Positions 4,760 to 17,741 of a DNA stretch of 52,653 nucleotides are shown here, piece after piece (positions within the stretch are counted from its first letter, which is position 1; each line of letters begins with the position of its first letter). The stretch lies in UHGV virus genome UHGV-0083175. One strand, 5' to 3'. The notes under the pieces were generated by a model. The model was given only the letters and a program-made list of their open reading frames with translations, had not been told where the DNA came from and searched no databases. The DNA comes from a virus. The translations under genes were made by a program, and so were the position numbers.

Positions 4760-4854
4760 AAACGGTTTGCGGGGAAAGAAGAGTTAAGTAGAATTGCTGC
4801 GGGTGCTTGAGGCTGTCTGCCTCGGGCATGCCGACGTAAGGCAGACAGAGAAAA

Positions 4855-4921
4855 GCCCCAGTTAACATTATGCGTCTTGCAGGACGCTTAACATTAATCT
4901 GAGGCCATATCTATGACTTGC
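4855..4921 (-). ncRNA. sok: Sok-like antisense RNA (predicted)
   Basis: Minus-strand promoter TTGCCT-N17-TAATCT (plus coordinates 4956-4928), antisense to the mok start region. The 3' end is only approximate. Confidence 0.45.
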
Positions 4922-5125
4922 ACACTTAGATTAGCCTCTTATGCGCCGAAAGGCAAGGAGCAGCAGGCTATGAAGCAGCAAAAGGCGATGCTAATCGCCC
5001 TGATCGTCATCTGTATTACCGTCGTTGTAACGGTACTGGTAACGAGGAAAGACCTCTGCGAGGTACGAATCCGAACCGGCCAGACGGAGGTCGCTGTCTT
5101 CACAGCTTACGAATCTGAGAAGTAA
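4913..5125 (+). CDS. mok: Mok-like overlapping reading frame (modulator of killing)
   Basis: 70-aa ORF in the same frame as hok and extending it at the 5' end, as in hok/mok/sok loci. Confidence 0.55.
   Translation: MTCTLRLASYAPKGKEQQAMKQQKAMLIALIVICITVVVTVLVTRKDLCEVRIRTGQTEVAVFTAYESEK
4970..5125 (+). CDS. hok: Hok/Gef family type I toxin
   Basis: MKQQKAMLIALIVICITVVVTVLVTRKDLCEVRIRTGQTEVAVFTAYESEK matches the recalled Hok/Gef family. Confidence 0.9.
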   Translation: MKQQKAMLIALIVICITVVVTVLVTRKDLCEVRIRTGQTEVAVFTAYESEK

Positions 5126-8996: not shown

Positions 8997-9136
8997 ATTT
9001 GTGGTAAATGGGCGGCTGGTGGGTGTTAGGGGCACTCACCAGCCATCTGCTCATGCGTTGGGGTCACAAGCAAACCTCAGGCCCACTGCTTTGCGCAAAA
9101 GCAGAATGAGCCTATCAGAGACAGGCTTAATGATCC

Positions 9137-10195
9137 ATGCTTAATACTGTAAAAATATCCAGTTGTGAGTTAATCAACGCCGACTGCCTGGAATTTATCC
9201 GGTCGTTACCCGAAAATTCTGTTGACCTGATAGTCACGGACCCGCCGTACTTTAAAGTGAAGCCTGAGGGCTGGGATAACCAGTGGAAGGGCGACGATGA
9301 TTACCTGAAGTGGCTGGACCAGTGTCTGGCGCAGTTCTGGCGGGTGCTGAAACCTGCCGGAAGTCTTTACCTGTTCTGTGGCCATCGCCTGGCATCTGAT
9401 ATCGAAATCATGATGCGTGAACGCTTCAGTGTACTGAACCATATTATCTGGGCAAAGCCGTCCGGACGCTGGAACGGGTGCAACAAGGAAAGCCTGAGGG
9501 CGTATTTCCCCGCCACAGAGCGCATTCTGTTCGCGGAACATTATCAGGGGCCGTATCGTCCGAAAGATGCCGGGTATGAGGCGAAGGGCAGGGCACTGAA
9601 ACAGCATGTGATGGCTCCGCTGATTGCTTACTTTCGTGATGCGCGTGCTGCCCTGGGGATAACGGCAAAACAGATAGTGGATGCCACAGGAAAGAAAAAC
9701 ATGGTGTCGCACTGGTTCAGTGCCAGTCAGTGGCAGCTACCGAACGAAAGCGATTATCTGAAATTACAGGCGCTGTTTGCCCGGGTGGCAGAAGAGAAGC
9801 ATCAGCGCGGTGAACTGGAAAAGCCCCACCACCAGCTGCTGGAGACGTATACTTCACTGAACCGGCAGTATGCGGAACTGCAGAGTGAATATAAGCATCT
9901 GCGGCGGTATTTTGGCGTGACGGCGCAGGTGCCGTACACGGATGTGTGGACGCATAAACCGGTGCAGTACTATCCCGGGAAACATCCGTGCGAAAAACCG
10001 GCAGAAATGCTGCAGCAGATAATCAGCGCGAGCAGTCGTCCGGGGGACCTGGTTGCAGATTTTTTCATGGGGTCGGGTTCGACAGTCAAAGCCGCGATGG
10101 CGCTGGGGCGTCGTGCAACAGGCGTTGAGCTGGAGACTGAACGTTTTGAGCAGACGGTCAGGGAAGTTCAGGATTTAGCCAGTCAGAACGGATGA
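9137..10195 (+). CDS. Orphan DNA N6-adenine (beta-class) methyltransferase
   Basis: DPPY motif IV near the N-terminus (..LIVTDPPYF) and motif I FFMGSGST near the C-terminus. No restriction enzyme gene is adjacent. Confidence 0.85.
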   Translation: MLNTVKISSCELINADCLEFIRSLPENSVDLIVTDPPYFKVKPEGWDNQWKGDDDYLKWLDQCLAQFWRVLKPAGSLYLFCGHRLASDIEIMMRERFSVLNHIIWAKPSGRWNGCNKESLRAYFPATERILFAEHYQGPYRPKDAGYEAKGRALKQHVMAPLIAYFRDARAALGITAKQIVDATGKKNMVSHWFSASQWQLPNESDYLKLQALFARVAEEKHQRGELEKPHHQLLETYTSLNRQYAELQSEYKHLRRYFGVTAQVPYTDVWTHKPVQYYPGKHPCEKPAEMLQQIISASSRPGDLVADFFMGSGSTVKAAMALGRRATGVELETERFEQTVREVQDLASQNG

Positions 10196-10235
10196 TATTG
10201 CAGGATTAGTTACGTACCGTTATTATCCTGCGCCC

Positions 10236-10310
10236 GGCCCTTTAGCTCAGTGGTGAGAGCGAGCGACTCATAATCGCCAGGTCGCTGGTTCAAATCCAGC
10301 AAGGCCACCA
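10236..10310 (+). tRNA. tRNA with anticodon CAT (Ile2/Met type), irregular acceptor stem
   Basis: Cloverleaf read by eye: TAGCTCAGTGGT D-arm, CTCATAA anticodon loop, GGTTCAAATCC T-arm, encoded CCA. The 3' acceptor strand is AAGGCC against a 5' strand of GGCCCTT. Confidence 0.7.
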
Positions 10311-10319
10311 TATCACATA

Positions 10320-10396
10320 CCGCCATTAGCTCATCGGGATAGAGCGCCAGCCTTCGAAGCTGGCTGCGCGGGGTTCGAGTCCTCGATGGCGGTCCA
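10320..10396 (+). tRNA. tRNA-Arg (anticodon TCG)
   Basis: Acceptor stem CCGCCAT/ATGGCGG, anticodon loop CTTCGAA, T-arm GGTTCGAGTCC, encoded CCA. Confidence 0.85.
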
Positions 10397-10674
10397 TTAT
10401 CTGCATTATGCGTTGTTGGTTCTGATGAGTGAATCATTGTCTTTTGAGCAACAGGCTATCATATAAGATAGCCTCAGACTTCCTTGTTTATTCTCGCCGG
10501 ATGCTTCGTAGATATTTGCAGGCATCTGTATGCAGGGGTATTATTGCGGCATATATCATCCGGAAAAATAAAAACTACATGCTGATCCGGAGATGATAGT
10601 TACAAGTCCTCCCGGATCCCGCATATTTACTATATTTTATAGATAATTGTTCTTGTTAATATGGAGATGGATAA

Positions 10675-11103
10675 ATGTATTGCCGTGCTGTACCGGTTCT
10701 TGTTTTGATATTAGCCAGTCTGACAACTGGCTGCACAAAAGATGTATCGACAAATAATTATGATGCTTCTCTGTATCACTCAGATAAATTAATAAAGTCG
10801 CAAAATTTGAGCTCATCGGAACGTACCCCTGATGCCAGTGAAGAAATCCGGCTGTATGCCATTCAGGTCAGGAAAGCCATAGAAGAACAGTTAAAGGATG
10901 CGAGTAAGTATTCAGGAAAAGAGTGTTCACTGAGAATGTATATGGCCCCGAATGGTCTTCTGCTACAGGTTAAAAGAGAAAGCGGTGATCCCGATTTATG
11001 TCGTGAAGCGATGAATGCAGTAAAGAATGCTGATATACCATCACCACCGTCTTCAGGAGTATATAAAGCATTTAGAAATGGCGTGCTGGATTTTAAACTC
11101 TGA
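10675..11103 (+). CDS. Lipoprotein carrying a TolA C-terminal (domain III)-like domain
   Basis: Lipobox LTTGC at residues 16-20. The C-terminus ..YAIQVRKAIEEQL.DASKYSGKECSLRMYMAPNGLLLQVKRESGDPDLCREAMNAV...IPSPPS..VYKAFRNGVLDFK parallels recalled E. coli TolA domain III. Confidence 0.85.
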   Translation: MYCRAVPVLVLILASLTTGCTKDVSTNNYDASLYHSDKLIKSQNLSSSERTPDASEEIRLYAIQVRKAIEEQLKDASKYSGKECSLRMYMAPNGLLLQVKRESGDPDLCREAMNAVKNADIPSPPSSGVYKAFRNGVLDFKL

Positions 11104-11238
11104 CAGGGGGAGAAGATTTTCTCCTGTCCTGATGATTTTGGGGCGCTGGAAAGATATTGTGCTGTGAAGTGTTAAATCCCTCACAATTCAGTAAGTTGAC
11201 AGTTGCCTGTCAGACTGAGCATTTGTTAAAAAAATTTC

Positions 11239-11416
11239 GCATGGTGAATCCCCCTGTGCGGAGGGGCGACTGGTGAACGGTATGATCTCTTTGATGATCG
11301 TAAGCGAGAATACGCGGGTTTGGTGTCACCGGGCTGAACTCACCGGGAGGCACCCGGCACCATGCTCATGGTGATACAGAAATGCGGCTTCAGCCCCTCT
11401 CCGGAGGGGCTTTCTT
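11239..11416 (+). ncRNA. Structured RNA module, copy A (unknown family)
   Basis: Closing helix GCATGGTG/CACCATGC, internal hairpins CCCCCT..AGGGG and CCGGG-aggca-CCCGG, and terminator GCCCCTC-tccg-GAGGGGC followed by Ts. Confidence 0.5.
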
Positions 11417-11422
11417 ATGGAC

Positions 11423-11491
11423 AAAAAAAGCCCGCGCTGGGAGACGCGGGCGGCAAGGAATAAACAATAAAACGTGAAGTAATACTTCAAC
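11423..11491 (-). ncRNA. Candidate sRNA, copy 1
   Basis: Minus-strand promoter TTGCGC-N18-TATTAT (plus coordinates 11527-11498), conserved body ACTTCACGTTTTATTGTTTATTCCTTGCC, and terminator GCCCGCG..CGCGGGC followed by T7. Confidence 0.45.
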
Positions 11492-11570
11492 TGGCGAATA
11501 ATACCCGACAGTAATCACTCTGCGCAATAGCGCGGCCTTTTTCGAATTGCGGGCTGTAGTCTCCCTTCTG

Positions 11571-11735
11571 CCGGGTGGCCTGGTTGCAGATTTCTTCATG
11601 GGGTAGGGTTCGGCAGTTAAAGCAGCGATGGCGCTGGGGCGTCGTGCAACTGGCGTTGAGCTGGATACCGGGCGTTTTGAACAGACTGCGCAGGAAATCA
11701 GGGATGTATTTAGCGGGAGCGGTTTGCAGAAGTAA
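11571..11735 (+). pseudogene. 3' remnant of a second N6-adenine methyltransferase gene
   Basis: Nucleotide-level paralogue of 10040-10195. It reads PGGLVADFFMG*GSAVKAAMALGRRATGVEL.., with an in-frame TAG. Confidence 0.8.
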
Positions 11736-11798
11736 TCTCCCAAAATGCCATTTTTGGAATATACTGGTATTAAGTCTTTTTGCTCAGGTTAATTCAAA

Positions 11799-12524
11799 AT
11801 GGATGTTGCCTGCTCTGTGGTCCTGATTCGCTATCCGATAGATATTTTTCTTGAAAAAGAAAAAGTTTCACTCGATGCCGGAAGTGTTATGCTTGTTGCC
11901 AGAAATATAAGAGGGCTTTTCTGTGCTTATGCCGACAGAGTGAAAATGGCAGATATAAGTAACAGCGTCGTCAATCAGTATCTGGAAAGGGAGTGTGAAC
12001 TGACGGAGTATACACCGACAAAAATGCCTCTTTATTTGATGTCTGATATTTACAATACGGAACTGGCGGAGGCTTTAATAACCCAGCATAGTGAATCCAG
12101 TGATACTTTGAAGGATTTCTCTGTTATAACCGCATTTTCATGTATCTCCTTATTTGCAACAGACAGGCGTCTGCCATTATTTTTGTCCGGTGCTGTAAAT
12201 AATATCAGCTGTAAAGTAAGGGCTATAATTCAGACCGACATATCGGCAGGCTGGATGCTAGGTGTGATTGCATTACAATTGCATATGAGCGAAAGCTTGT
12301 TGAAGCGAAAACTTAAGGATGAAGGTTATAGCTTTAGTCGGTTGTTGCTGGAGGAGCGAATGCGTGTTGCTGTTAATCTTGTATGTTTCCAGCGAGAGTG
12401 TGGACAAGCGATAGCGGAAAAATGTGGTTACTCAAGTAAGTCCTATTTCATTTCTGTATTTCACCAGTATTATGGTGCACCACCTGAGAGCTATGCATAT
12501 TTGCAGAAAGCAGACGTTATCTGA
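11799..12524 (+). CDS. AraC/XylS-family transcriptional regulator (moron)
   Basis: C-terminal double-HTH pattern: W.L..IA..LHMSESLLKRKLKDEGYSFSRLLLEERM..A..L......I..IAEKCGYSSKSYFISVFHQYYG.PP..Y. Confidence 0.85.
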   Translation: MDVACSVVLIRYPIDIFLEKEKVSLDAGSVMLVARNIRGLFCAYADRVKMADISNSVVNQYLERECELTEYTPTKMPLYLMSDIYNTELAEALITQHSESSDTLKDFSVITAFSCISLFATDRRLPLFLSGAVNNISCKVRAIIQTDISAGWMLGVIALQLHMSESLLKRKLKDEGYSFSRLLLEERMRVAVNLVCFQRECGQAIAEKCGYSSKSYFISVFHQYYGAPPESYAYLQKADVI

Positions 12525-12613
12525 TGTTTTTTCATCAGGCATATATTGATTGACTGTATTAGATATAGTCTGAATGTGTTCAGCATAAAAAGTTATAATC
12601 ATTTGGTGTTTGC

Positions 12614-12892
12614 GTGAATATTGATGAGAAAATCAGATGTAGCCAACTGTTACAGCGTATTGAAGCCGTCAATGTGGAACGAACAAAGGTCTTCAGTCGT
12701 CTGACAGTTTTATTTTGTACCCCTGATCGACGTTCAGGTCAGGAGATGGTTCTTCTGGATGTAGATGCACTTCGGAACGTCTGTGAGGAGTTCACCGCGG
12801 CTAATTCGGAGTTACTGAGTCTTGTTCAGGAGTACAACAGAATTGCAGGTAGTAACGGTTTTGATGAAATCAAAATTATATCCCGTGGATAA
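12614..12892 (+). CDS. Hypothetical protein
   Basis: 92-aa ORF (GTG start) downstream of the AraC-type gene, within the same AT-rich block. Confidence 0.45.
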   Translation: MNIDEKIRCSQLLQRIEAVNVERTKVFSRLTVLFCTPDRRSGQEMVLLDVDALRNVCEEFTAANSELLSLVQEYNRIAGSNGFDEIKIISRG

Positions 12893-13210
12893 AACATATC
12901 CTGTATATTTATGTTGTTACATACAGGCGCTTTTAGTATCTGCCGCACGGCAGTTGTACTTTAGAATAAGATGCTTTTGTGACTGGTGGTGTTGTATCTG
13001 GGGTTAGCCAGGAGGCAGGTTCAGAGAGTCCGGTGGTAATTATGTGTATGCAGTGGTTGTTGCTGTACCGTGGGCAAGTTCTGGAACTGGCTTCGTCCAT
13101 TGTAGATGATTGTTAGCTGGATATCAGTTACCTCATGGAAATGTTAAATGACTCACAATTCGGTTGATGGACTATTGTCTGATCGATGGAAGTCTTGTAA
13201 AAACGAGCCA

Positions 13211-13375
13211 GCATAGTGAATCCCCCTGTGCGGAGGGGCGTCTGACATGGTCTCCATAGCGATGGTCACAATACGCAGATTCAGTAGTCAGGCTGAATCT
13301 ACCGGGAGGCACCCGGCACTATGCTGCTTATGGTGTATACATAGCGATCGGCCCCTCTCCGGAGGGGCTTTTTTT
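13211..13375 (+). ncRNA. Structured RNA module, copy B
   Basis: Closing helix GCATAGTG/CACTATGC, a compensatory change relative to copy A. It has the same hairpins and terminator. Confidence 0.5.
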
Positions 13376-13469
13376 GTGCGGGAAAAGGCTGTGTTGTTAA
13401 GTGTTAAATTCCTCACAGTTCAGATGGTTGATGCTTGCCTGTCTGAGGGGGAGTTGTTAAAAAAGTTCT

Positions 13470-13634
13470 GCATGGTGAATCCCCCTGAGCGGAGGGGCAT
13501 ATCAGCGCAGGTGTTTCTACTCTATCCTTTCTGTGCGGGTTCAGGTGCTGATACTGAACTCACCGGGAGGCACCCGGCATCATGCATATGGTTAACAGAC
13601 ACGTAGCGAAGCCCCTCTCCGGAGGGGCTTTTTT
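13470..13634 (+). ncRNA. Structured RNA module, copy C
   Basis: Closing helix GCATGGTG/CATCATGC (one G-U pair), variable hairpin TATCAGC/GCTGATA, same terminator. Confidence 0.5.
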
Positions 13635-13729
13635 ATGCAGGGAAAAGGCTGTGTTGTGAAATGTTAAATTCCTCACAATTCATGAGGTTGATGATTGTCT
13701 GATTGATGAGGAGTTTGTTAAAAAAAACG

Positions 13730-13883
13730 GCATGGTGAATCCCCCTGTGCGGAGGGGTGATATCGTATCATTTCATGTGTGGCCGACTGATATCACGGAC
13801 ATTTGTTCACCGGGAGGCACCCGGCACCTGCAGTATACAGAGATTAGGCATACATCCAGGCTCCTCATCGCAGGAGCCTTTTT
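13730..13883 (+). ncRNA. Structured RNA module, copy D
   Basis: 5' GCATGGTG and 3' CACC-TGC (1-nt gap), variable hairpin GTGATATC/GATATCAC, and a different terminator GGCTCCT..AGGAGCC followed by T5. Confidence 0.45.
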
Positions 13884-13889
13884 ACATGT

Positions 13890-13967
13890 AAAAAAAACCG
13901 CTCCCGGGAAGAGCGGTTGGCAAGGAAGCAAGGAATAAATAACAAAACGTGAAGTAATTTATTCAGC
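13890..13967 (-). ncRNA. Candidate sRNA, copy 2
   Basis: Minus-strand TTGCGC-N18-TATTAT (plus coordinates 14003-13974), body ACTTCACGTTTTGTTATTTATTCCTTGC.., and terminator ACCGCTC..GAGCGGT followed by T8. The stem covaries with copy 1. Confidence 0.45.
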
Positions 13968-14115
13968 ACCCTAATAATACCTTAGAGTAATCACCTTGCG
14001 CAACTGTAAGGGCGTATTTCTTTTTTGCGGGCTGTTTTTCTGTGTGACTTTTGTGTTTCCGGAGGTCAGTCCGTGCCTTCTCTGACTCAGAACATTATCC
14101 CGGCCGGGAGGATTC

Positions 14116-16053
14116 ATGGCATTTAAACACTACGATGTGGTCAGGGCGGCATCGCCGTCAGACCTTGCTGAACGACTGACACAAAAACTGAAGGAGGGCT
14201 GGCAGCCATTTGGCAGTCCGGTGGTCATCACGCCTTATACCCTGATGCAGGCCATTGCGGCGGAAGGTGATGTCACCACACCAGTGGCGGTGACCGGTAA
14301 TGAGGGTAAGGCGGTGGCTGTCAGTGCCACCAGCGACCCGGAGTATTACTTTGTTGTGGTTCTGGCAGGGCAGTCAAATGGCATGTCGTATGGTGAAGGT
14401 CTTCCGCTGCCGGAGACATATGACCGTCCGGACCCGCGTATTAAGCAGCTGGCGCGCCGCAGTACGGTGACACCGGGCGGTGTCGCCTGTAAATATAACG
14501 ACATCATTCCGGCGGACCATTGTCTGCATGATGTGCAGGACATGAGCCGTCTTAACCATCCGAAAGCGGACCTGTCAAAGGGGCAGTACGGAACCGTGGG
14601 GCAGGGGCTGCATATCGCCAAAAAACTGCTGCCGTTTATACCGGCGAATGCGGGTATTCTGCTGGTTCCGTGCTGTCGTGGTGGTTCAGCGTTCACCACC
14701 GGAGCTGATGGCACATACAGTGACGCGAGTGGTGCCTCGGAGAATTCAGCGCGCTGGGGTGTGGACAAGCCGCTGTATAAGGACCTTATCGGTCGAACAA
14801 AAGCAGCACTGAAGAAGAACCCGAAAAATGTGCTGTTTGCCGTGGTGTGGATGCAGGGGGAATTTGATTTTGACGGCACGCCCGGAAATCACGCAGCACA
14901 GTTTGGTGCGCTGGTTGATAAATTCCGTGCAGACCTGACGGATATGGCAGGTCAGTGCGTTGGTGGCTCTGCTGGCGGTGTTCCCTGGATATGCGGGGAC
15001 ACGACGTATTTCTGGAAGCAGAAGAACGAATCCACCTGCCAGATGGTGTACGGCAGCTATAAAAACAAAACGGAAAAGAATATCCATTTCGTACCGTTCA
15101 TGACGGATGAGAACGGGGTGAATGTGCCGACGAACAAACCGGAAGAAGACCCGGACATTCCGGGTATCGGGTATTACGGTTCGAAATGGCGTGACAGCTC
15201 AGCCACCTGGACGTCACAGGACAGGGCGAGCCATTTCAGCACCTGGGCACGCCGGGGGATTATTTCCGACCGTCTGGCAACGGCGATTCTGATTCATGCA
15301 GGACGAACCACAGTAAAAGTCGATGCTCCATCTTCTGAAACTGGCGCACCGACGCCATCACCGTCAGAAAATGAAGCGGTAAGCACAACAACACTGCTGT
15401 CTTACCGTGCCAGTGAGTCTGAAGGGAGGCTGACCGAACAGGGCTGGAGTGCTGGCGGAGGTAAAGCGGAAATTGTTGCTGATGAAGGTGCAACAGGTGG
15501 TACCGCGATGAAGCTGAGCAAGGAGACAGGAGTGGGGTCATGGTATCTGGAGCATGATGCCGGTACTGGCGCTGAACTGCTGAAAAATGGCGGTTTAATC
15601 AGCTGCCGCTTTAAGGCATCCGGTGAACTGGTAGCAAATCAGTATGTCATTGCACTTTACTGGCCGGTTTCCTCTCTGCCGCAGGGTGTCACCCTGACAG
15701 GGGATGCAGGGAATAATCTGCTGGCAGCGTTTTACATCCAGACAGATGCAAAAGACCTGAATGTGATGTACCACAATGCGAAGGTGGCGACAAATAACCT
15801 GAAACTGGGAAGCTTTGGCGCATTTGATAACGAATGGCATACGCTGGCTTTCCGCTTTGCCGGGAATAACAGCCTTCAGGTGACGCCGGTTATTGATGGT
15901 CAGGATGGCACACCGTTCACGCTGACGCAGTCACCGGTCAGTGCATTTTCGGCGGATAAGTTGCATGTGACAGACATTACCAAAAGTGCGACTTACCCGG
16001 TACTGATAGACAGCATTGCGGTGGTAGTGAATAACGCGGACGCCGCGGCATGA
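14116..16053 (+). CDS. nanS-p: NanS-p type prophage sialate 9-O-acetylesterase
   Basis: N-terminal DUF1737-like MAFKHYDVVRAASPSDLAERL.., an SASA/SGNH block VVLAGQSNGMSYG, 645 aa, and the typical position upstream of the lysis genes. Confidence 0.85.
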   Translation: MAFKHYDVVRAASPSDLAERLTQKLKEGWQPFGSPVVITPYTLMQAIAAEGDVTTPVAVTGNEGKAVAVSATSDPEYYFVVVLAGQSNGMSYGEGLPLPETYDRPDPRIKQLARRSTVTPGGVACKYNDIIPADHCLHDVQDMSRLNHPKADLSKGQYGTVGQGLHIAKKLLPFIPANAGILLVPCCRGGSAFTTGADGTYSDASGASENSARWGVDKPLYKDLIGRTKAALKKNPKNVLFAVVWMQGEFDFDGTPGNHAAQFGALVDKFRADLTDMAGQCVGGSAGGVPWICGDTTYFWKQKNESTCQMVYGSYKNKTEKNIHFVPFMTDENGVNVPTNKPEEDPDIPGIGYYGSKWRDSSATWTSQDRASHFSTWARRGIISDRLATAILIHAGRTTVKVDAPSSETGAPTPSPSENEAVSTTTLLSYRASESEGRLTEQGWSAGGGKAEIVADEGATGGTAMKLSKETGVGSWYLEHDAGTGAELLKNGGLISCRFKASGELVANQYVIALYWPVSSLPQGVTLTGDAGNNLLAAFYIQTDAKDLNVMYHNAKVATNNLKLGSFGAFDNEWHTLAFRFAGNNSLQVTPVIDGQDGTPFTLTQSPVSAFSADKLHVTDITKSATYPVLIDSIAVVVNNADAAA

Positions 16054-16188
16054 TAAAAAAAGCCGCCAGTTACCGGAATGGACTGGCGGTGGTAATACCT
16101 ATGGAGAAAAAATAAAGGAACGATACTTTCGTACTCTGTTTTTTTAAATGAAAACAGTTCTTATTGTCAACAATAACGGTAAGAAATT

Positions 16189-16368
16189 ATGACTTTTATT
16201 CATCAGGTGATGCTGTACTTCTGTACGGCAGTCTGTGTGCTGTATCTCCTTTCGGGCGGATACCGGGCCATGCGTGACTTCTGGCGCAGACAGATTGACA
16301 AAAGGGCCGCTGAGAAAATCAGCGCCAGTCAGTCAGCCGGAAGCAAACCCGAAGAGCCGCTCATTTAG
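16189..16368 (+). CDS. Small membrane protein (59 aa, DUF826-like; below the track cutoff)
   Basis: MTFIHQVMLYFCTAVCVLYLLSGGYRAMRDFWRRQIDKRAAEK... has one TM segment. It occupies a position conserved upstream of the holin in related prophages (recalled). Confidence 0.55.
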   Translation: MTFIHQVMLYFCTAVCVLYLLSGGYRAMRDFWRRQIDKRAAEKISASQSAGSKPEEPLI

Positions 16369-16408
16369 CGGCAACTTTCTTAATCACACCTTTCGACGAG
16401 AAAATCCC

Positions 16409-16654
16409 ATGTCAGAAATTACATCCCTGGTCACTGCTGAAGCAGTGAAGGACGTCCTGCGCTCTGAAGAAGTCCTGAGCGCACTGAAACAGAAACTTCG
16501 CCATAACCTGGAAGCGCGTCTTGATGCAGAAGTGGATGCCATTCTGGATGAACTGCTGGGCGCACCGGCAGTTCCGGAGCCGGAAGGTATCGCGGGTGAG
16601 GGGAGTGCTTCAGATGGCGGTGACCCCACACCTGACAGCGACATGATGATGTAA
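16409..16654 (+). CDS. Hypothetical acidic protein
   Basis: The ATG at 16409 gives [30 protein letters not shown]... (81 aa). The track ORF is extended upstream to 16235. Confidence 0.55.
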
Positions 16655-16730
16655 GCATGCGCAAGGGACCATCGGTGTGTGCCGGTGGTCTTTATATTGT
16701 TGTGAGCTTCCGGATTGCGGGAGACGGGGT

Positions 16731-16946
16731 ATGTACCAGATGGAAAAAATCACAACAGGTGTGTCATACACCACGTCAGCGGTGGGAACGGGCTACTGGT
16801 TCCTGCAGTTGCTGGACAGGGTTTCCCCGTCTCAGTGGGCGGCAATAGGCGTGCTGGGGAGTCTGCTGTTTGGGCTGCTGACATATCTGACGAACCTGTA
16901 TTTCAAAATTAAAGAAGACCGGCGTAAGGCGGCGCGGGGAGAGTAG
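16731..16946 (+). CDS. S: S21-type class II holin (pinholin), dual-start
   Basis: [71 protein letters not shown] matches the recalled phage 21/Stx-phage S. Met1 and Met4 form the dual-start motif. Confidence 0.9.
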
Positions 16947-16949
16947 ACG

Positions 16950-17741
16950 ATGAATAAACAATACGAACTGGTTGTTAAAGGGATAAATATTTACCCGGAT
17001 AAGATTACTGTTACTGTGGCGCTGGAAACTGGTGGGTATACGTCACTGTTGTTGCCAAATGTGGTGATTGATCTTGATCGTGTTGAAGGTGCCCCGCTGG
17101 AGTTTTACGAAGCTGAGGCGAAAAAGAAGGCGAAGCAGTTTTTCATGGATATTGCTGCCGGGTTATGTGAAGGGAACGAACCGTTGCCGGAAAAGCGCCT
17201 CTGTTCAGAAGAGCGGTATACCATACAAATTAACAATGCATATAACACGATACAGTCAGAAAAAGATGATATCGAATCACGCATTGAAAAACTGGAGAAC
17301 AGCGTCGTTGAACTGAATAAAAAACTGTCGGTGCAGATCCCTTCCGAAGGTGAAAAAAAACGCCGTGATGAGCAGTTCGCGGCGTTTTACGATTATTGCC
17401 GGAAAGTGATGAGCAGAAATCTCGCAGAGTGTTTCCGTATTCAAAAAAACAGAGAGCGCTCTGCAAATAGTGAGATTCTGGATAATTTTTTAAAGGGGAC
17501 GCATCTCGCCAGTGATTGTTTCATTGCTCATTCTTTTGGTGGCTTTCATGAGGCCATCAAACATGATGTTGAGAGAAGTCCAGGTATCCTCTGTTCCATT
17601 CCCGTAAGCATCGAAATAGACACAAATACGATAACCGGTGAACTCGTTACCGCCGGAGTCGGTATATTCCGTCATGAGGGGAACGATGCCAAAGGTTCCT
17701 TTACAAAAATCGGGCCGTTCTTTCTGAAGGTAGAGCGATAG
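16950..17741 (+). CDS. Hypothetical protein (inserted cassette, gene A)
   Basis: 263-aa ORF starting 3 nt after the holin stop, with a coiled-coil-like middle. The last ~84 codons are antisense to gene B and may be fortuitous. Confidence 0.45.
   Translation: MNKQYELVVKGINIYPDKITVTVALETGGYTSLLLPNVVIDLDRVEGAPLEFYEAEAKKKAKQFFMDIAAGLCEGNEPLPEKRLCSEERYTIQINNAYNTIQSEKDDIESRIEKLENSVVELNKKLSVQIPSEGEKKRRDEQFAAFYDYCRKVMSRNLAECFRIQKNRERSANSEILDNFLKGTHLASDCFIAHSFGGFHEAIKHDVERSPGILCSIPVSIEIDTNTITGELVTAGVGIFRHEGNDAKGSFTKIGPFFLKVER

Follow-up and report, generated by a model that had tools for sequence, protein, structure and literature searches.

Two minus-strand small RNA genes of a lambdoid prophage very probably belong to the Hfq-binding EcOnc08/EcOnc21/EcOnc42 family

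RESULTS

Two minus-strand elements at a prophage moron site

The viral genome UHGV-0083175, analyzed here as one stretch of 52,653 nucleotides (nt) and called the window below, carries two copies of a small RNA (sRNA) element on its minus strand. On the plus strand, the surrounding features follow in the order DNA methylase, tRNA genes, TolA-C open reading frame (ORF), a first STnc100 element (module A) with sRNA copy 1, AraC-family gene, a 92-amino-acid (aa) ORF, three further STnc100 elements (modules B, C, and D) with sRNA copy 2, and an esterase gene. This is the "moron" site in the late region of a lambdoid prophage. Both elements are very probably sRNA genes of the EcOnc08/EcOnc21/EcOnc42 family of lambdoid and Shiga toxin (Stx) prophages, the same as the sRNA "E2348C_1409.E2348C_1408.IGR" of enteropathogenic Escherichia coli (EPEC), and encode Hfq-binding, base-pairing RNAs.

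A search of the 52.6-kb window for the promoter pattern TTGCGC-N18-TATTAT found it exactly twice and in each case on the minus strand (11498-11527 and 13974-14003); shuffled sequences gave an expectation of 0.01 match. The -35 and -10 elements are located at 11527-11522 and 11503-11498 in copy 1 and at 14003-13998 and 13979-13974 in copy 2, separated in both cases by an 18-nt spacer. A U-rich body with the layout ACTTCACGTTTT(A/G)TT(G/A)TTTATTCCTTGC is positioned 3' of each promoter. This 28-nt sequence (ACTTCACGTTTTRTTRTTTATTCCTTGC) was also found exactly twice in the window, at 11453-11480 and 13928-13955 on the minus strand, where no match was expected; the segment ACUUCACGUUUUGUUGUUUAUUCCUUGCC lies within this sRNA body and outside the promoter. 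A repeat search recovered the same two repeat pairs (D5 and D6), and a conserved core of 31 nt is 94% identical between the two copies.

A terminator scan of the minus strand detected a hairpin at 11451-11430 followed by T7 in copy 1 and a hairpin at 13918-13896 followed by T8 in copy 2. Together with the predicted folds, it defines an intrinsic terminator at 11423-11451 with an 8-bp stem at 11451-11430 and a second terminator at 13890-13918, in which AACCGCUC and GAGCGGUU form the stem before the U-run. Comparison of the copy 1 stem (GCCCGCGU/GCGCGGGC) with that of copy 2 (AACCGCUC/GAGCGGUU) revealed three double compensatory pairs. The first-pass annotation of this DNA had proposed the two promoters, the shared U-rich body, the hairpin with a tail of 7 to 8 U and a covarying stem, and an arrangement convergent with structured-RNA modules; all four were reproduced. 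The modules correspond to four plus-strand Rfam STnc100 elements (RF02076, 119 to 172 bits), and modules A (11210-11422, 172 bits) and D (13702-13889, 129 bits) extend up to the ends of the minus-strand RNAs, so that each pair is convergent and positioned tail-to-tail.

The predicted short form of copy 1, based on homology to EcOnc08, the fold, and a start site placed by analogy, comprises about 70 nt (11423-11492, minus strand). Its 5' end is variable and forms a small hairpin; a U/G-rich single strand follows, then the putative seed CCUUGCC (11452-11458) immediately 5' of the terminator stem, the terminator, and U7. Copy 2 represents a divergent allele, whose predicted short form of about 78 to 80 nt (13890-13969, minus strand) was delimited by homology and alignment. 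The greater length of copy 2 results from a tandem seed duplication of 8 nt, UUCCUUGC-UUCCUUGCC (13919-13935), which sets copy 2 apart from all other alleles in alignments A1 and A3. The duplication was overlooked in the first-pass annotation. Copy 2 is a minor new variant with a tandem duplicated seed. The folds of both predicted RNAs are more stable than those of shuffled sequences (z = -4.6 for copy 1 and -4.1 for copy 2). In the minimum free energy fold of copy 1, the U-rich region and the seed CCUUGCC are unpaired; in copy 2, the second seed repeat alone is unpaired and the first lies inside a predicted 5' helix. The features of a canonical Hfq-dependent (class I-like) sRNA are present, namely, a terminator with at least 6 U, an upstream U-rich single strand, an accessible conserved seed, and a predicted promoter of its own.

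Homology to EcOnc08, EcOnc21, and EcOnc42

The elements were compared with loci from EPEC E2348/69 prophage PP6 (L001), E. coli O157:H7 Sakai prophage Sp4 (L002), and Sakai prophage Sp15, where the EcOnc42 locus lies 3' of stx1B (L003). All three loci carry the promoter, body, seed, and terminator of copy 1, from the -35 element to the U-tail (alignment A1). Between the promoter spacer and the U-tail, copy 1 is 95% and copy 2 is 75% identical to the EcOnc08 locus of Sakai Sp4. Table S2 of Tree et al. 2014 (PMC4104026) gives EcOnc08 as a peak of Hfq cross-linking and analysis of cDNA (CRAC) at 1179938-1180010 on the minus strand of Sakai Sp4, present in five of five data sets. This peak maps to positions 2439-2511 of L002, which extend from the last T of TATTATT through the U-tail. 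Table S6 of Pearl Mizrahi et al. 2021 (PMC8550237) places "E2348C_1409.E2348C_1408.IGR" on the minus strand of EPEC E2348/69 prophage PP6 (NC_011601, 1444797-1444978), and a remark in the table reads "Homologues identified in EHEC (EcOnc08/EcOnc21/EcOnc42)," EHEC being enterohemorrhagic E. coli.

The window copies share with the EcOnc08/21/42 loci the promoter, body, seed, and terminator, the orientation relative to the late operon, and the position convergent with an STnc100-type sRNA and upstream of a DUF1737/SASA/DUF6645 esterase gene. Two features of the EcOnc08 family are present in both copies. The seed CCUUGCC, duplicated in copy 2, immediately precedes an intrinsic terminator that ends in a U-tail, and the gene is located downstream of PR', where it is antisense to the late operon and meets an STnc100-type RNA tail-to-tail. 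The copies also differ from the published loci. Copy 2 has diverged from EcOnc08, with its 8-nt seed duplication, another terminator stem, and another 5' end; copy 1 is located upstream of an AraC-type moron instead of the esterase gene; and both copies show G/A changes in the UUUUGUUGUUU stretch compared to the EHEC/EPEC allele.

The sRNA family has already been detected and is unnamed, unannotated, and functionally uncharacterized. A review entry for EcOnc42/21/08 reads "Northern probing; Hfq-CRAC; targets unknown." Beyond Tree et al. and Pearl Mizrahi et al., the literature search found EcOnc08/21/42 in two other papers alone, which give the targets as unknown, and no further paper for the sequence itself or the EPEC locus name. 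Rfam searches at the gathering threshold and at E ≤ 1 assigned no family to the element; an anti-hemB match overlapping copy 1 (19 bits, E = 0.82) is at chance level. A coding function was considered and set aside: the minus-strand ORF 11390-11743 over copy 1 has no Pfam match, and a 48-aa ORF (13971-14117), which overlaps the start of the esterase gene, is positioned upstream of the RNA body.

Hfq binding, RNA partners, and seed

The EPEC homologue was recovered by RIL-seq (ligation and sequencing of interacting RNAs), and the tables of PMC8550237 list chimeras with the 5' untranslated regions (5' UTRs) of cfa (767) and dppA (197) and with pcm (118 + 17), perA (30), tir (29), espC (26), E2348C_3965 in the enterocyte effacement locus (16), and emrA (15). 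According to the same source, the homologue was the RNA2 partner in 9 of 10 interactions, and MEME detected the motif GGCAAGG/GGCAGGG in the target fragments. GGCAAGG is the complement of the conserved CCUUGCC.

Searching for pairing with RNAduplex on whole target regions produced long-loop artifacts that were no better than shuffles, and a contiguous-helix search was used instead. The best contiguous helix with the cfa 5' UTR comprises 9 bp (UCCUUGCCG:CGGCAAGGG) for the EHEC allele as well as for window copy 1 and is weakly better than shuffles (p ~0.07 to 0.09). The EHEC/EPEC allele can form a 10-bp helix (UUUGUUGUUU:AAACAACAAA) with a C/A-rich element just upstream of the dppA ribosome binding site (RBS), which is broken by the G/A polymorphisms in both window copies. 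The motif UUGUUGU is common to the R1 seed region of GcvB and the EHEC/EPEC allele, without overall homology to GcvB. The dppA 5' UTR is the second RIL-seq partner of the EPEC homologue, and a GcvB-like pairing to dppA is regarded as a lead only.

Both the CRAC and the RIL-seq data came from ordinary lysogen cultures, and prophage induction goes unmentioned in the relevant passages of either paper (PMC4104026, PMC8550237).

These homologue data bear directly on the sRNA interpretation of the first-pass annotation, which could not match the element to a known RNA; the 95% identical Sakai locus now assigns it to the EcOnc08/21/42 family. The core of that interpretation is supported. An Hfq-dependent, trans-acting sRNA agrees with the EcOnc08 CRAC peak and the RIL-seq mRNA partners of near-identical homologues, and Hfq cross-linking and RIL-seq data, named there as a check, exist for homologues. 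Expression in the lysogen, antisense to the late operon, is in line with the culture conditions, and UUAUUCCUUGCC gains support as the likely seed through the complementarity of CCUUGCC to the target motif. The proposed size of 70 to 80 nt is the part that was not confirmed, given the published sizes of the homologues described below.

Promoter and transcript length

The AsxR and AgvB loci carry a -35 element TTGCGC, an 18-nt spacer, and a -10 element TAAAAT, and the published sRNA sequences begin 6 nt after the -10 element. The primary 5' ends of AgvB and AsxR were mapped by RNA ligase-mediated rapid amplification of cDNA ends (RLM-RACE), as reported in Tree et al. 2014 (PMC4104026). The proposed promoter, TTGCGC-N18-TATTAT, is therefore the positional homologue of this experimentally used promoter and has indirect support from it. 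By analogy, the predicted transcription start (+1) would be located at about 11492 in copy 1 and at about 13969-13967 in copy 2, within 1 to 2 nt of the coordinates in the first-pass annotation. The 5' edge of the EcOnc08 peak is 5 nt from the +1 predicted by the AgvB/AsxR analogy.

Several points weigh against a short, base-pairing sRNA at these positions. The promoter is moderate, with three of six consensus positions in the -35 element, an 18-nt spacer, and no extended -10, and it fell under the threshold of the consensus scan. The sizes given for homologues are about 271 nt in an EHEC Northern blot (PMC4104026) and about 182 nt as an EPEC estimate from RNA-seq coverage (PMC8550237), not 70 to 80 nt. 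The CRAC peaks EcOnc21, directly upstream of the -10 element, and EcOnc42, antisense to the start of ECs_2972, are reported on the same strand (PMC4104026). The seed-target helices are short and taken alone not significant compared to shuffles (p ~0.07 to 0.3), and the literature searched contained no regulatory effect on any target. Furthermore, the experimental data come from homologues, the two window copies being known from sequence alone.

Since EcOnc21 and EcOnc42 are positioned upstream of the proposed promoter, longer RNAs certainly exist. An alternative promoter-like site, ATGCCA-17-GATAAT, was found by the promoter scan at 14094-14122 on the minus strand and would give a precursor of about 196 nt through copy 2. 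It overlaps the esterase start codon on the other strand, and its position fits the EPEC estimate of about 182 nt and the EcOnc21 peak. A long antisense transcript (about 180 to 270 nt) might be the only functional RNA, acting in cis on the 5' UTR, RBS, and start codon of the nanS-p-like esterase gene, and TTGCGC-N18-TATTAT would then be part of the transcript and not a promoter. The Northern signal of about 271 nt is part of the case for such a transcript, as are the two upstream CRAC peaks, the EPEC estimate, and the ATGCCA-17-GATAAT site at 14122-14094. However, the EcOnc08/21/42 probe of Tree et al. 2014 (PMC4104026), AATAATATCCGACAGTAATCACTCTGCGCAATAGC, corresponds exactly to the reverse complement of GCTATTGCGCAGAGTGATTACTGTCGGATATTATT, and this sequence is the promoter from the -35 to the -10 element. 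A 70-nt RNA starting downstream of TATTAT is therefore undetectable with this probe, and the absence of the short form from the Northern blot is uninformative. In copy 1, moreover, the esterase 5' region and the GATAAT site are absent, yet the proximal promoter and the body are intact. The RACE-mapped AgvB/AsxR promoters have a homologous -35 element and the same 18-nt spacing, the trans partners in RIL-seq were ligated to the 3' module, and a long precursor can coexist with a short primary or processed form. We consider an exclusively long, cis-acting RNA possible but rather unlikely.

A short primary form of about 70 to 80 nt probably exists. It is favored by the RACE-mapped homologous promoter, the edge of the EcOnc08 peak, and the layout of copy 1. 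Short and long forms would share the same functional 3' module.

Relation to the AgvB/AsxR anti-sRNAs and to Pas sRNAs

According to Tree et al. 2014 (PMC4104026), the interval between the moron coding sequence (CDS) and a conserved downstream ORF contains convergent sRNA pairs whose minus-strand partner is AgvB, AsxR, or EcOnc03, with 51 to 60 nt and a conserved 42-nt 3' region. The AsxR locus of Sp5 and the AgvB1 locus of Sp10 were compared with EcOnc08-type loci (alignment A2); Sakai carries AgvB as well as an EcOnc08-type gene. The comparison revealed a common upstream backbone, ...GGCAGAAG-AGAC-ACAGCCC--AATACGAAAAAGGCCGCGC--TTGCGCAG. Sp4 and Sp5 share 94% identity in the left flank, up to and including the -35 TTGCGCAG; for the right flanks, identity is 82 to 85%. 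The two types of loci further share the prophage slot, the 18-nt spacer, Hfq binding, the antisense orientation to the late operon, and an STnc100-like convergent partner. In contrast, the RNA bodies are unrelated (54 to 59% identity to AgvB/AsxR/EcOnc03 in a forced global alignment), and the EcOnc08-type RNA is longer and U/G-rich, whereas the anti-sRNAs are C/A-rich. Membership in the AgvB/AsxR/EcOnc03 family was rejected: the conserved 3' region (GUAUCUCAUGC-AUUGCCCGAACCCAYUCGGGC) is missing, the predicted length is 70 to 80 nt compared to 51 to 60 nt, and neither AgvB (RF02702) nor AsxR (RF02703) gave a match at E ≤ 1 in window positions 9000-17000. On these sequence comparisons, the EcOnc08-type RNA is an alternative cassette at the AgvB/AsxR site and not a family member.

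The same comparison bears on whether the element is an anti-sRNA (sponge) of the AgvB/AsxR class, which would sequester or destabilize a core-genome sRNA instead of regulating mRNAs. Its slot, flanks, and -35 element equal those of AgvB/AsxR, convergent sRNA pairs have been described at this site, and pairing of the U/G-rich stretch with C/A-rich RNAs is conceivable. The unrelated body, the missing Rfam matches, and the greater predicted length argue against a sponge, and so do the RIL-seq partners of the EPEC homologue: all eight listed are CDSs or 5' UTRs and none is an sRNA. In PMC8550237, the authors' criterion for an sRNA is given as more than 67% mRNA partners. A sponge function is accordingly very unlikely.

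PasA and PasC (Zhu, Shabalina, and Storz 2026 preprint, 10.64898/2026.05.13.724894) resemble the window elements as prophage-encoded, Hfq-dependent, minus-strand RNAs of about 80 nt near STnc100/PasD and an esterase gene. In E2348/69 PP2, however, PasA lies beyond the esterase gene at a distance of about 2.2 kb from PasD2, and its published seed region differs. Identity with PasA/PasC was rejected: the probe target CTCTCCACCGAAAGTCAGTGCTGGC has no match in the window at ≤3 mismatches, and the position downstream of the esterase gene next to a holin gene is not shared.

Conservation and distribution

Two scans of IMG/VR, one anchored in the body and one in the promoter, each covered at least 120 stretches. 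Among the body-anchored matches listed, TTGCGC is kept in all 123, followed after 18 nt by TATTAT in 122 and GATTAT in 1. Among the promoter-anchored matches listed, 142 of 144 carry CUUGC[CU] and 141 of 144 a stable hairpin with at least T6; the three exceptions are an insertion sequence (IS)-interrupted copy, an unrelated match, and a copy with a stem point mutation. At about 1300-1420 on the minus strand of L141 (IMG/VR 2526164619_000010), the U/G-rich body is broken directly after CACGTTTTG by foreign IS-end-like sequence (GGTAATGACTCCAACTTACTGATAG...). The IMG/VR matches listed contain at least 31 distinct RNAs and at least 15 distinct hairpins. Compensatory changes in the hairpin include G-C to A-U, C-G to A-U, and G-C to U-A, e.g., GCCCGCG/CGCGGGC to GCCCGCA/UGCGGGC, and hairpins of the copy 2 type were also seen. 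In a third body allele (...CGUUAAUUAAUUGUUCAUAUUGUUUCUUCUUGCC...), only the promoter, CUUGCC, and the terminator are retained; the constraint therefore lies on the seed and the terminator.

Selection on the hairpin itself, evident from the covarying stem, and its back-to-back position with the STnc100 terminator would also be compatible with a mere terminator or insulator against antisense run-in to the STnc100/tRNA region, the sRNA being a functionless by-product. Such a role leaves unexplained that the 28-nt single-stranded body and CUUGCC are kept across lineages with diverged stems and 5' ends, and homologues have published Hfq binding and mRNA chimeras that share a seed-complementary motif. 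It is thus most improbable that the hairpin serves as an insulator alone.

The two-copy arrangement of the window recurs in at least two IMG/VR loci (L046 and L056). The copy 2 allele was found in these two loci and in L019, and without the duplication in L047. A copy 1 query matched 990 of 5,426 complete E. coli genomes (about 18%), including O157 and ST131, at up to five places per genome, and no annotated feature lies under the element among the E. coli genome matches listed. It also matched 48 phage records, mostly Stx2a-converting phages. A copy 2 query matched 359 complete E. coli genomes, 116 of them over its full length. An exact-pattern scan with CACGTTTTNTTNTTTATTCCTTGC of one GTDB representative genome per species gave no match, which is uninformative on the spread beyond E. 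coli strains.

Genomic surroundings

The plus-strand features begin with the DNA methylase gene (9137-10195), followed by tRNA-Met(CAT) and tRNA-Arg(TCG) at 10235-10396, predicted by ARAGORN. In Sakai, the counterparts of these tRNAs carry the annotations ileZ (anticodon CAT, tRNA-Ile) and argN; Sp4 has a third tRNA, argO, that the window lacks. A TolA-C-like ORF of 142 aa (10675-11103; PF06519, E = 5e-22) lies between the tRNA genes and STnc100 module A. The AraC-family regulator gene (HTH_18/HTH_AraC) is located at 11799-12524 and the 92-aa ORF, which has no Pfam match, at 12614-12892. The AraC gene and the 92-aa ORF form a moron flanked on both sides by STnc100 and sRNA units, an arrangement that looks like duplication or recombination of the unit around the inserted genes. 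In Sakai Sp4, the AraC-family gene ECs_1087 is also nearby, but upstream of the tRNAs. Modules B (13182-13377) and C (13441-13640) form, together with module D, three tandem STnc100 copies (13182-13889, plus strand) with a spacing of about 250 to 260 nt directly before sRNA copy 2. The sialate-esterase-like ORF with DUF1737, SASA, and DUF6645 domains (14116-16053, plus strand) comes after copy 2, and plus-strand DUF826 and DUF1327 ORFs come after the esterase ORF.

A further sRNA-like unit was observed just downstream of the esterase ORF (16055-16175, minus strand). It has a consensus -35 element TTGACA (about 16169-16164) and, about 100 nt on, a hairpin GCCGCCAGT...ACTGGCGGC followed by T7. 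Its only Rfam match is a weak one to Esr41 (23.8 bits compared to a gathering score of 102). Its position is that of EcOnc52/PasA in Sakai Sp4 and EPEC PP2; the PasA probe target is absent. In the early prophage region, an Rfam match to the sok antitoxin (RF01794, 113 bits) at 4801-4975 on the plus strand points to a hok/sok-type toxin-antitoxin locus.

DISCUSSION

The sequence of the window, combined with the homologue data on Hfq binding, RIL-seq partners and motif, and with terminator covariation and the promoter backbone, suggests the following mode of action; the exact +1, the expression of both window copies, and the regulatory outcome are inferred. The sRNA gene occupies the moron slot downstream of PR', converges tail-to-tail on an STnc100-type sRNA, and is antisense to the late operon; it could therefore be transcribed in the lysogen. 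The primary transcript would probably be an RNA of about 70 to 80 nt from the TTGCGC-N18-TATTAT promoter; long transcripts of about 180 to 270 nt from near or inside the esterase 5' end also occur and end at the same terminator. The functional module would be the 3' portion of about 70 nt, in which a U/G-rich single strand and a seed before the stem precede a GC-rich hairpin with a U-tail that may dock on Hfq. With Hfq, the seed would base pair at GGCAAGG-like sites of mRNAs from the host and from virulence genes; the cfa 5' UTR is the strongest candidate partner by far, followed by the dppA 5' UTR, pcm, perA, tir, and espC.

A wider reading, which we put forward as speculative and doubtful, is that the slot between the STnc100-type RNA and the esterase gene is a site of swappable sRNA cassettes that act on one host circuit from opposite sides. 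A fixed backbone, made up on the left of the flank that ends with the -35 TTGCGCAG and on the right of the flank that starts at the U-tail, would drive unrelated sRNA bodies in different prophages. AgvB, which mimics GcvB targets, sponges GcvB and thereby de-represses dppA; the EcOnc08-type RNA, carrying a GcvB-like U/G stretch and CCUUGCC, would bind the dppA and cfa leaders directly. If this were true, the duplicated seed of copy 2 and the G/A changes within the U/G stretch would represent retargeting events.

Compared to the literature, the relation to the AgvB/AsxR cassette, the limited reach of the Northern probe, the third body allele, and the seed-duplicated copy 2 allele are modest additions. 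The only published Northern blot probed the promoter, which places the short sRNA outside its reach. The sRNA and AgvB/AsxR are alternative cassettes behind a common -35 element, and an allele with a duplicated seed exists. The finding can be linked to the existing CRAC and RIL-seq data. The sRNA adjoins stx1 and stx2a in many Stx phages, and in view of its strongest RIL-seq partners (cfa, dppA, pcm, and the virulence transcripts tir, perA, and espC), a role as prophage-to-host regulator is plausible. These results leave the picture of prophage sRNAs unchanged and provide a defined target for characterization and for an Rfam family.

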